Shown: positions 19,533-20,484 of the stretch, piece by piece
Numbering within the stretch: position 1 is the stretch's first letter
How the letters are laid out: each line of letters starts with the position of its first letter
Assembly: GCF_054482595.1 (NCBI RefSeq)
Contig: NZ_CM137008.1
Direction: 5' to 3' (one strand)
DNA length: 64,000 nucleotides
Notes under the pieces: model-generated
Seen by the model: the letters and a program-made list of their open reading frames with translations, nothing else
The model's database searches: none
Told to the model about the DNA's origin: nothing
Translations under genes and position numbers: made by a program

Positions 19533-19609
19533 TGGCGCGCCCTGCAGGATTCGAACCTGCGGCCCACGACTTAGAAGGTCGTTGCTCTATCCAACTGAGC
19601 TAAGGGCGC
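19533..19609 (-). tRNA. argU: tRNA-Arg (anticodon UCU)
   Basis: Reverse complement reads GCGCCCTTAGCTCAGTTGGATAGAGCAACGACCTTCTAAGTCGTGGGCCGCAGGTTCGAATCCTGCAGGGCGCGCCA: 77 nt, cloverleaf-compatible, TCT anticodon, encoded 3' CCA. Confidence 0.95.
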
Positions 19610-19851
19610 GTTGATACCGCAATGCGGTGTAATCGCGTGAATTATACGGTCAACCCTTGCTGAGTCAATGGCTTTTGATCTGGTTGCTGAACAAGTGAAC
19701 GACCGCGTCTGATTTTCTGATTTATTTCGCTATAGCGGCAAACAAACGCACACCGCTGCGCGTCTGAATCAAGAAAACCCGTATTTTCATGTATCAAAGT
19801 ACAATTTCCCGCCCTAACGGAAAATTGTCCGCTCCTATGAGACTGGTAACT

Positions 19852-20484
19852 ATGAAACCAACGTCGGTGATCATTATGGATACTCATCCTATCATCAGAA
19901 TGTCTATTGAAGTTCTGTTGCAAAAAAACAGTGAATTGCAGATTGTCCTGAAAACGGATGATTATCGCATAACCATCGATTATCTCCGAACCCGTCCTGT
20001 TGATTTAATCATTATGGATATAGACTTGCCCGGAACAGACGGTTTTACCTTCCTGAAAAGGATCAAACAAATCCAGAGCACAGTGAAAGTATTATTTTTA
20101 TCATCGAAATCAGAATGCTTTTATGCTGGCAGAGCGATACAAGCTGGTGCTAACGGTTTTGTCAGTAAATGCAATGATCAGAATGATATTTTTCATGCCG
20201 TTCAGATGATCCTCTCCGGATACACTTTTTTTCCCAGCGAAACGCTCAACTATATAAAAAGCAATAAATGTAGTACGAATAGTTCAACGATCACTGTGCT
20301 ATCTAATCGTGAAGTGACGATATTACGTTATCTGGTCAGCGGATTATCTAATAAAGAAATTGCCGATAAGTTATTACTTAGCAATAAAACAGTTAGCGCG
20401 CATAAATCTAATATTTATGGCAAGCTAGGTTTGCATTCAATTGTAGAGCTCATCGACTACGCCAAATTATATGAATTAATATAA
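19852..20484 (+). CDS. fimZ: Fimbrial response regulator FimZ (receiver plus LuxR-type HTH)
   Basis: ORF 19789..20484; start at Met22 (MKPTSVIIMDTHPII...) gives 210 aa; LuxR HTH near the C-terminus; contains rare AGA/AGG Arg codons. Confidence 0.88.
   Translation: MKPTSVIIMDTHPIIRMSIEVLLQKNSELQIVLKTDDYRITIDYLRTRPVDLIIMDIDLPGTDGFTFLKRIKQIQSTVKVLFLSSKSECFYAGRAIQAGANGFVSKCNDQNDIFHAVQMILSGYTFFPSETLNYIKSNKCSTNSSTITVLSNREVTILRYLVSGLSNKEIADKLLLSNKTVSAHKSNIYGKLGLHSIVELIDYAKLYELI

Follow-up and report, generated by a model that had tools for sequence, protein, structure and literature searches.

Probable inherited synteny and AT-rich codon usage behind the divergent argU-fimZ pair beside the sfm fimbrial genes of Escherichia coli

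The window, that is, the whole 64-kb stretch of DNA that we analysed, contains a tRNA-Arg gene, argU, placed between envY and fimZ, a gene for a fimbrial regulator that is transcribed away from it. The features of this part of the locus, including the three rare arginine codons of fimZ, are as follows:

18726-19487, + strand: envY, 45 bp from the 3' end of argU
19533-19609, - strand: argU, tRNA-Arg with anticodon UCU, 77 nt (ARAGORN, Rfam tRNA, RefSeq annotation)
19610-19720, unstranded: conserved region upstream of argU/fimU, about 110 of the 242 bp between the divergent genes (four-genus alignment, long invariant blocks)
19641-19668, - strand: likely argU promoter, TTGACT, 16-nt spacer, TATAAT (consensus scan and conservation)
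19721-19851, + strand: fimZ-proximal spacer, about 130 bp (alignment and promoter scan)
19852-20484, + strand: fimZ, 210 aa (NCBIfam FimZ equivalog, RefSeq annotation)
19897-19899, + strand: fimZ codon 16, AGA (in 'atc aga atg')
20059-20061, + strand: fimZ codon 70, AGG (in 'aaa agg atc')
20131-20133, + strand: fimZ codon 94, AGA

The identification of the two genes as tRNA-Arg(UCU) argU and fimZ, made in a preliminary description of this DNA from its letters alone, is confirmed by ARAGORN, Rfam, the NCBIfam model NF007403 and RefSeq. ARAGORN detected one tRNA in the window, a tRNA-Arg with the anticodon tct, which the Rfam tRNA model matches with 72 bits; a sub-threshold match to the Rfam family 'Plastid-ycf2', antisense to the tRNA, was dismissed as spurious. 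The sequence is 100% identical to annotated tRNA-Arg genes of many E. coli genomes, and the gene is present in 5424 of 5426 genomes of this species (99.9%) with a median copy number of 1. This is the well-known housekeeping tRNA gene argU (dnaY, tRNA-Arg4), essentially a single-copy core gene, in the place where E. coli carries it, between fimZ and the prophage/envY side. Lambdoid prophages, DLP12 among them, use its 3' end as their attachment site. In this strain the site is vacant, with neither a DLP12-type prophage nor ompT, and envY follows directly, as in 2434 of the 5426 genomes, where argU is likewise followed by envY at an empty attachment site. About 32 nt upstream of the 5' end of the tRNA lies the candidate promoter, which agrees with the consensus at 11 of 12 positions. 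Both of its hexamers fall within blocks that are invariant in E. coli, E. albertii, Salmonella and C. koseri, and this match and conservation make its predicted assignment to argU likely.

The product of fimZ scores 446 bits against NF007403 (cutoff 271) and, going by Pfam matches on its homologues, combines a response-regulator receiver domain (PF00072) with a LuxR/GerE-type DNA-binding domain (PF00196). The same span is labelled fimZ by RefSeq in a genome that differs from the window by 10 SNPs and is otherwise collinear with it; an ORF starting at 19789 was set aside as merely an in-frame upstream extension of the fimZ ORF. FimZ shares 72% identity with Salmonella FimZ and is its orthologue, a response regulator that activates fimA. 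The gene has a GC content of 36.7% (GC3 38.6%) and is found in 4173 of the 5426 E. coli genomes (77%); in the remaining 23% or so, argU persists. The two genes stand head-to-head, 242 bp apart, and their divergence was correctly recognized at the outset, 'back-to-back' being a loose term for such a pair. The spacer between them has 45% GC. Its fimZ-proximal part has only the ribosome-binding region in common with other genera: the alignment detected no homology of this part to the Salmonella fimY-fimZ promoter region, and the promoter scan found no sigma-70-like site on its + strand. Beyond fimZ lie the sfm genes, all on the opposite strand:

20487-21002, - strand: sfmF, minor fimbrial subunit gene, tandem AGA AGA at codons 2-3 (20994-20999)
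21013-22020, - strand: sfmH, adhesin gene, AGA at codon 6 (22003-22005)
22033-24642, - strand: sfmD, usher pseudogene, TAG at codon 172 (24127-24129), AGG at codon 12 (24607-24609)
24673-25365, - strand: sfmC, periplasmic chaperone gene, 4 of 11 Arg codons AGA/AGG, none within the first 20 codons
25585-26127, - strand: sfmA, major fimbrial subunit gene, AGA at codon 4 (26116-26118)

The chaperone-usher gene set is consequently incomplete, with sfmA, sfmC, sfmH and sfmF intact and the usher gene broken. An 'internal stop' in sfmD is also the RefSeq annotation in the near-identical genome that differs from the window by 10 SNPs.

The rare codons quoted for fimZ in the preliminary description, 'atc aga atg' and 'aaa agg atc', are indeed there as AGA16 and AGG70, and together with AGA94 they account for three of its eight Arg codons. 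From their proximity to argU it had suggested that the sfm operon is controlled by tRNA availability, after the example of Salmonella. Fully stated, translation of FimZ and the Sfm proteins would be limited by tRNA-Arg(UCU) through 5' AGA/AGG codons, and expression or charging of argU would gate Sfm fimbriation much as fimU does through FimY, a reading that we consider unlikely. The precedent itself is genuine. The fimU gene of Salmonella enterica (Swenson 1994; Tinker & Clegg 2001) lies next to the fim regulators and is the orthologue of argU, with 74 of 77 bases identical (3 differences). Salmonella and the present strain have in common an orthologous fimbrial cluster, its chromosomal site beside folD and the orientation of the tRNA with respect to the regulators, and a linked tRNA-Arg(UCU) divergent from regulators, as in the fimU/FimY module, is thus seen here too. 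Salmonella FimY carries AGA at codons 7, 9 and 14 and AGG at codon 15, and the recurrence of this N-terminal AGA/AGG cluster of FimY in several genera speaks for tRNA control of such clusters. However, the window has no FimY, the sole protein with a demonstrated dependence on fimU: E. coli is without the fimU-sensitive fimY and without fimW, the phosphodiesterase gene and fimI, whereas Salmonella has all of these, and tblastn searches of the 64-kb window with FimY, FimW and the EAL protein gave nothing below E=0.1. The tRNA-sensitive step of the module, a fimY whose first 14 codons include a cluster of AGA, is accordingly missing from the window. Moreover, as the work of Tinker & Clegg (2001) is related in PMC11316696 and PMC6527747, a Salmonella fimU mutant regains its fimbriae when the first three rare codons of fimY are recoded. 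If recoding fimY alone suffices, as these accounts have it, the AGA/AGG codons of FimZ and of the structural genes are not limiting there, even though Salmonella FimZ has 4 AGA and 1 AGG in total, among them the same AGA at codon 16 as here. The pseudogene status of sfmD in this strain also counts against a gate on Sfm fimbriation.

To place the arrangement in a wider context, orthologous fimZ loci were gathered by a protein homologue search followed by retrieval of the encoding contigs; a FimZ peptide-pattern scan of genome contigs returned mostly generic NarL-type response regulators, E. albertii alone being useful. Of the 48 Enterobacteriaceae loci that have at least 3.5 kb of upstream flank, 42 carry a tRNA-Arg(UCU) gene upstream of fimZ and divergent from it, including those of Salmonella, C. 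koseri, Kosakonia, Scandinavium, Lelliottia, locus L091 and E. albertii. The distance between the two is 241-256 bp in Escherichia only and 1.6-3.0 kb in the other genera (about 2.5 kb in Salmonella against 242 bp here), in which fimY, a gene for an EAL-domain phosphodiesterase and fimW lie in between. Judged from this gene order, the adjacency of argU and fimZ is inherited synteny. The locus would be the Escherichia remnant of a Salmonella-type type 1 fimbrial cluster with the ancestral order folD, fimA(I)CDHF, fimZ, [fimY, phosphodiesterase, fimW], tRNA-Arg(UCU). The Escherichia lineage would have arrived at its arrangement by deletion, and the absence of fimY, the phosphodiesterase gene, fimW, fimI and the native fimZ promoter region would leave argU divergent from fimZ at 242 bp. 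Integration of an island at the tRNA was rejected as the cause of the adjacency since the fim cluster is on the 5' (promoter) side of the tRNA, whereas integrases and prophages are on the 3' side, as seen at locus L087 and described by Kisiela (2013).

The maintenance of the tRNA orientation relative to the fim regulators in these 42 of 48 loci would also be expected if the two genes were coupled in cis, with H-NS/Hha acting on the 242-bp spacer and on the AT-rich fimZ and sfm genes, and with this silencing spilling over onto the argU promoter or being co-ordinated with it. Hha is reported to occupy both the argU and the fimZ loci in vivo, to repress argU 5.6-fold and to lower fimbriation (PMC2408971), which favours such coupling and also a tRNA gate; the low GC content of fimZ and the single short spacer common to both genes fit the former. 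Nevertheless, we hold coupling in cis to be very unlikely. The spacer itself has 45% GC, and the argU promoter block is conserved whatever lies upstream, be it fimZ (Escherichia) or fimW (elsewhere). Further, argU is kept in the E. coli genomes that are without fimZ. Hha also binds the unlinked rare-tRNA loci ileX, ileY and proL (PMC2408971), and its binding is therefore independent of adjacency to fimZ.

We then turned to codon usage, using annotated coordinates for the sfm set and ORF calls for the background genes only, the latter from 214 kb of the same genome. AGA/AGG make up 17 of the 93 Arg codons of fimZ and sfmACDHF (18%), as against 42 of 976 (4.3%) in the other annotated genes of the window and 205 of 3291 (about 6%) in the 214 kb (odds ratio 3.7, Fisher P=3e-5). 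A count against the genome average was the check proposed in the preliminary description, and as the genes lie above that mean its idea survives this check at face value. The excess disappears, however, against genes of matched composition. The AGA/AGG share of Arg codons depends steeply on GC3, being 43% below 0.40, 14.5% at 0.40-0.45, 9.2% at 0.45-0.50 and below 5% above that. From the GC3 bins of this genome 13.9 AGA/AGG codons are expected in fimZ/sfm against the 17 observed (P=0.24), and a comparison with all genes of GC3 <0.5 (95 of 447) gives a Fisher P of 0.89. The excess over the genome mean is real, and over genes of matched GC3 it is absent, which counts against a tRNA gate. ATA (17% of Ile codons) and TTA (34% of Leu codons) are likewise raised in fimZ/sfm. 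The comparison is a cautionary one: a rare-codon excess measured against the genome mean vanishes once the AT-rich genes of the same genome become the yardstick.

The distribution of these codons along the genes is a different matter. All six Arg codons within the first 20 codons of the fimZ/sfm genes are AGA/AGG, compared with 4 of 18 in 29 composition-matched genes of the same genome (Fisher P=0.0016), and five of the six genes have an early AGA/AGG, compared with 4 of the 29 (P=0.002). A strong concentration of the kind is also seen in the fim structural genes of 8 other genera, where AGA/AGG account for 11 of 29 within the first 20 codons, compared with 33 of 682 (odds ratio 12). These start-of-gene excesses, of which those of fimZ/sfm hold against matched AT-rich genes, speak for a tRNA gate. 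We examined mRNA structure as a reason for them: with CGN in place of AGA/AGG at positions 2-6 of sfmF, sfmH and sfmA, the 5' mRNA is predicted to fold more tightly, by 0.3 to 5.5 kcal/mol. As an account of all the early AGA/AGG, structure was nonetheless rejected, for it fits these three genes and fails for sfmD codon 12 and fimZ codon 16, both past the positions where A-richness aids initiation. AGA AGA at codons 2-3 raises expression rather than lowering it, which goes against a gate, whereas induced lacZ with AGA AGA at codons 2-3 shows tRNA-Arg4 drop-off and stalling in pth cells, which goes with it (both PMC2034473); what AGA/AGG do in essential genes of E. coli has been ascribed to mRNA structure and ribosome-binding-site-like motifs (10.1101/069385).

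Among the rare Arg codons of fimZ, codon 16 stands out, being AGA or AGG in all 70 distinct sequences while other Arg sites change class. Codon 70 is AGA/AGG in 23 of the 26 clusters in which the residue is Arg and is otherwise Lys or CGN, and codon 94 exchanges freely between AGA/AGG and CGN among genera, with 4 inferred changes. Such constancy favours a tRNA gate, but zero codon-class changes at site 16 against a mean of 2.4 per Arg site yields only P ~0.09. It might instead reflect a nucleic-acid element in the first 60 nt of the gene, such as an initiation structure or a site for a small RNA or protein, with codon rarity playing no part. Codons 1-20 have the lowest synonymous diversity in fimZ (normalised entropy 0.38-0.50 against a mean of 0.73), in keeping with such an element; Eyre-Walker and Bulmer are said to have noted in 1993 that fewer synonymous changes at gene starts are general in enterobacterial genes. 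A predicted hairpin at nt 10-62 is 96% paired over 18 diverse sequences, with the third base of codon 16 kept in a U-A or U-G pair, and recoding codon 16 to CGN loosens the predicted 5' structure, shifting the ensemble energy by +0.9 to +3.0 kcal/mol. Against this, covariation in the nt 10-62 hairpin does not rise above shuffles (333 of 500 reach the observed score), the consensus energy is a weak -6.3 kcal/mol, and the first two bases of codon 16, which make the distinction between AGA/AGG and CGN, are unpaired in the predicted structure. We do not claim a conserved RNA hairpin here, as its pairing is kept yet its covariation is no better than in shuffled controls. Although a phage small RNA, sRNA103, is reported to increase fimZ expression (PMC7873438), an RNA element as the cause of the invariance appears quite unlikely to us.

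Taken together, the locus is probably an ordinary one, made up of inherited synteny and AT-rich codon use, with argU not a dedicated component of the sfm system. A tRNA acts in trans. In keeping with this, the loci of Cedecea and Buttiauxella, whose fim clusters have moved away from the tRNA, and locus L086 have no tRNA within 8 kb of fimZ, yet their fimZ retains AGA16 and a similar AGA/AGG share. With its own strong conserved promoter, argU would supply tRNA-Arg(UCU) in trans to every AGA codon of the cell, and inherited synteny accounts for its position beside a codon-biased gene. AGA/AGG, ATA and TTA are as frequent in fimZ/sfm as in the other AT-rich genes of the genome as a consequence of their composition. 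The AGA/AGG codons within the first few positions may reflect a general preference for A-rich codons after the start codon and in signal-peptide N-regions, and known start-of-gene codon effects can explain both the six-out-of-six early codons and fimZ codon 16. Any sensitivity of Sfm to the level of tRNA-Arg(UCU) would then be generic and common to hundreds of AT-rich genes, rather than a gate made by adjacency, and we infer that a dedicated gate is lacking. What had been proposed as tRNA-availability control through adjacency falters on the inherited gene order, the absence of fimY, the action of tRNAs in trans, the codon counts of matched genes, the near-universal presence of argU in a species where fimZ is often missing, and the broken sfmD of this strain, and retains the early AGA/AGG cluster and the invariant codon 16. 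These two, together with the failure of the folding argument at codon 16, the Salmonella FimY precedent of a cluster that can be gated by a tRNA, and Hha at argU and fimZ (PMC2408971), we count against an ordinary locus.

Much of this has been anticipated. Garcia-Contreras et al. (2008) found that E. coli fimZ has more AGA, AGG, ATA (six), CCC and CTA codons than expected from the genome, remarked on its proximity to argU and proposed rare-tRNA control of fimbriae (PMC2408971). Their subject was type 1 (fimA-H) fimbriae and biofilm, not sfm, and their yardstick was the genome mean only, whereas composition-matched genes were used here. The rare-codon bias of fimZ and the argU-fimZ synteny are already published, and the finding is essentially ordinary. 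The leuX-fimB pair embodies the same concept, a minor tRNA limiting translation of a fimbrial regulator rich in its codon, although tRNA, codon, regulator and fimbrial system all differ from argU-fimZ; leuX is not adjacent to fimB, and adjacency is hence unnecessary for such control. A full-text literature search (fimU, fimZ, sfm, argU, rare codons) found no experiment on sfm together with argU, which does not help the case for a gate.

In its boldest form, a gate responsive to tRNA-Arg(UCU) would have outlasted the loss of FimY, working through fimZ codon 16, within its 20-codon stretch of reduced synonymous change, and through the AGA/AGG at codons 2-12 in four of the five genes for Sfm structural proteins. 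FimZ, in addition to FimY, would be a conserved sensor of tRNA-Arg(UCU) supply across Enterobacteriaceae, and the 242-bp region might link that supply to silencing of the island. We give this very little credence; if true, it would provide a second target for textbook tRNA-limited fimbrial control and would help to explain why E. coli has its sfm operon in a cryptic state. One small observation is new: codon 16 of fimZ is invariably AGA/AGG, and fim-family genes of different genera have these codons strongly concentrated near their 5' ends.

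The window comes from an E. coli chromosome and, 10 SNPs aside, is collinear with NZ_AP022540.1 (strain THO-010); around argU and fimZ the genes run cusRS, nfrB, nfrA, ybcH, envY, tRNA-Arg(UCU), fimZ, sfmF, sfmH, sfmD, sfmC, sfmA and folD. The sole tRNA detected by ARAGORN in the whole 64 kb is a tRNA-Arg with anticodon tct (argU), which lies head-to-head with fimZ across a 242-bp gap. The preliminary description had placed this tRNA divergent from fimZ, as ARAGORN, Rfam, NCBIfam and the coordinates confirm; the rare arginine codons it quoted are AGA16 and AGG70, and with an additional AGA94 such codons make up 3 of the 8 fimZ arginine codons.

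Features of the argU-fimZ region
18726-19487, plus strand: envY, from the layout of the near-identical genome
19533-19609, minus strand: tRNA-Arg(UCU) gene argU (ARAGORN, anticodon tct; Rfam, 72 bits)
19668-19641, minus strand: predicted argU promoter (TTGACT, 16-nt spacer, TATAAT)
19852-20484, plus strand: fimZ (NCBIfam FimZ equivalog, 446 bits)
19897-19899, plus strand: fimZ AGA16
20059-20061, plus strand: fimZ AGG70
20131-20133, plus strand: fimZ AGA94
Downstream of fimZ, all minus strand: sfmF, sfmH, sfmD, sfmC and sfmA

The fimZ start common to all orthologues is 19852; an in-frame ATG at 19789 (19789-19851), used by some automatic gene calls (protein cluster P0001), lengthens the ORF to 231 amino acids.

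Comparative genomics shows this arrangement to be synteny inherited around a tRNA gene with a housekeeping role. FimZ orthologues are common across Enterobacteriaceae, and we compared ten loci, namely that of E. albertii and those of nine genomes or long contigs (Salmonella, C. koseri, Cedecea, an Enterobacter-labelled contig, Kosakonia, Buttiauxella, Scandinavium, Lelliottia and the non-Escherichia locus L091). A divergent tRNA-Arg(UCU) marks the cluster end in seven of the ten, and in the remaining three the cluster lies in another chromosomal setting, away from folD. Metagenome contigs, scanned with a degenerate pattern, supplied 80 further fimZ loci; where the sequence extends at least 3.5 kb upstream of fimZ, 42 of 48 loci have the divergent tRNA. 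Only in E. coli and E. albertii are the tRNA and fimZ as close as 241-256 bp; in the other loci they are 1.6-3.0 kb apart. All nine non-Escherichia loci have fimY upstream of fimZ, with an EAL-domain phosphodiesterase gene (5/9) and fimW (6/9) farther upstream, and fimI among their structural genes; when FimY and FimW of Salmonella and the EAL protein of C. koseri served as tblastn queries, the window gave no match. About 110 bp 5' of the tRNA, containing the predicted promoter, are conserved among E. coli, Salmonella and C. koseri, while the fimZ-proximal ~130 bp resemble other genera in the ribosome-binding region alone. Because these genes are absent and the spacer is conserved mainly on its argU side, the close spacing would most simply reflect a loss of fimY, the phosphodiesterase gene, fimW and the native fimZ promoter region in the Escherichia lineage, within an old syntenic block. 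The synteny with Salmonella was already drawn by Kisiela et al. 2013, with prophage insertions downstream of the tRNA. Gene content between tRNA and fimZ is variable: in Scandinavium (L089 6052-7102) fimY alone intervenes, 258 bp from the tRNA, and in Kosakonia (L087 4284-5695) a phage-type integrase directly adjoins the tRNA 3' end. The argU 3' end is the usual attachment site of DLP12-type prophages; here this side (19488-19532) is unoccupied, with envY 45 bp on and neither ompT nor appY. Of 5426 complete E. coli genomes, 2434 have envY, argU and fimZ contiguous in this way.

The adjacency had been read as a sign that tRNA availability controls sfm, a reading that this comparison does not support. 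argU is not dedicated to sfm but is a housekeeping gene, since its sequence is present in 5424 of the 5426 genomes (median one copy) as against 4173 for fimZ. Moreover, fim clusters without a nearby tRNA retain the same fimZ AGA/AGG codons, as expected of a trans-acting tRNA. The Salmonella precedent for fimU-dependent fimbriation is genuine, but its target is FimY rather than FimZ, and FimY is the component missing from E. coli. As reviews recount Tinker & Clegg 2001 (PMC11316696, PMC6527747), the fimU-dependent step is FimY translation, a fimU mutant regained FimY and type 1 fimbriae once the first three rare fimY codons were exchanged, and FimY alone was affected. Our sequence check places AGA at codons 7, 9 and 14 of Salmonella fimY. 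Since recoding of fimY suffices even though the Salmonella fimZ compared here has four AGA (AGA16 among them) and one AGG, FimZ rare codons are not limiting in this sole tested system.

By annotated coordinates, AGA/AGG constitute 17/93 arginine codons (18%) in fimZ and sfmACDHF, and 42/976 (4.3%) in the remaining window genes. Against all background genes (about 150 ORFs, binned by GC3, from the window and three further 50-kb segments of its genome) the anticipated excess holds (odds ratio 3.7, P=3e-5).

AGA/AGG share of arginine codons by GC3 of background ORFs
GC3 below 0.40: 43%
GC3 0.40-0.45: 14.5%
GC3 0.45-0.50: 9.2%
GC3 0.50-0.55: 4.5%
GC3 0.55-0.60: 3.6%
GC3 above 0.60: 3.7%

It does not hold against GC3-matched genes: with GC3 of 0.39 for fimZ and 0.36-0.47 for sfm, the bins predict 13.9 such codons against 17 observed (Poisson P=0.24), and the excess over background genes with GC3 below 0.5 is gone (P=0.89). 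ATA and TTA rise alongside, to 17% of Ile and 34% of Leu codons. As the excess vanishes on matching and ATA/TTA rise in parallel, the enrichment is real yet generic to AT-rich genes, matches base composition, and is not specific to argU-read codons. Raised rare codons in E. coli fimZ, beside argU, were already tabulated by Garcia-Contreras et al. 2008 (PMC2408971). Thus, genes, orientation and codons were correctly described, and the proposed control is partly supported at best, given synteny, composition and the missing FimY.

What partial support there is comes from codon position. Every arginine codon among codons 1-20 of the fimZ/sfm genes, six in total, is AGA/AGG (sfmF 2 and 3, sfmA 4, sfmH 6, sfmD 12, fimZ 16), as against 11/87 later ones (P=1.6e-5) and 4/18 early ones in a set of 29 low-GC3 genes annotated in this genome (Fisher P=0.0016); five of six fimZ/sfm genes have an early AGA/AGG, versus 4/29 of that set (P=0.002). 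The concentration is family-wide: in fimA, fimI, fimC, fimD, fimH and fimF of eight other genera (L083-L091, taxa without a linked tRNA included), AGA/AGG form 11/29 early and 33/682 later arginine codons (odds ratio 12, P=2e-7), and GC3 there is ordinary (0.53-0.76) versus the low values of E. coli sfm. Such a pattern favours a codon effect, but we consider gating of FimZ/Sfm by tRNA-Arg(UCU) unlikely: apart from the absence of FimY and the compositional match, most early AGA/AGG fall at positions 2-7, in signal-peptide N-regions, and experiments have found that an AGA AGA pair at positions 2-3 favours expression (PMC2034473). Non-tRNA roles of E. coli AGA/AGG have been traced to mRNA structure and ribosome-binding-site-like motifs (10.1101/069385), and recoding the early codons of sfmF, sfmH and sfmA to CGN increases the predicted structure of the 5' mRNA.

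Codon 16 of fimZ likewise favours a codon effect, being AGA or AGG in 70/70 distinct full-length sequences (28 clusters at 10% DNA divergence); the one exception is CGC in a truncated metagenome read. Against this, its zero parsimony switches between AGA/AGG and CGN (mean 2.4 per arginine site) reach only P about 0.09, and low synonymous diversity spans all of codons 1-20 (19852-19911), the lowest in the gene (normalised entropy 0.38-0.50 versus a gene mean of 0.73; 28 clusters), where TCG18 and ATA19 are conserved besides AGA/AGG16. Reduced synonymous diversity at gene starts is general in enterobacterial genes. A predicted hairpin over fimZ nt 10-62 is maintained among sequences, with covariation not above shuffled controls. 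The early codons, the other genera and codon 16 are thus not decisive. A stronger version, in which a tRNA-Arg(UCU)-responsive gate outlasted FimY loss with FimZ as conserved sensor across Enterobacteriaceae, appears very improbable. What retains a modest interest is that AGA/AGG concentrate at the 5' ends of the genes of this fimbrial family and are invariant at fimZ codon 16.

In this lineage the sfm operon is non-functional: the usher gene sfmD (22033-24642) carries an internal TAG at codon 172 (24127-24129), a stop that RefSeq also flags in THO-010, listing sfmD there as a pseudogene. With its usher gene interrupted, Sfm fimbriae cannot be assembled here at any tRNA level. Elsewhere in the window, a small, very AT-rich gene (55153-55644; GC 34%, GC3 0.28) overlapping the end of an Rhs core gene, which probably encodes immunity to the Rhs toxin tip, has AGG for all three of its arginine codons. 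The nfrB gene (12456-14693) has a premature TGA at codon 387 (13614-13616), due to a G-to-A SNP at 13616, and is intact in the near-identical THO-010; as NfrB and NfrA are required for phage N4 adsorption, the isolate may be N4-resistant.
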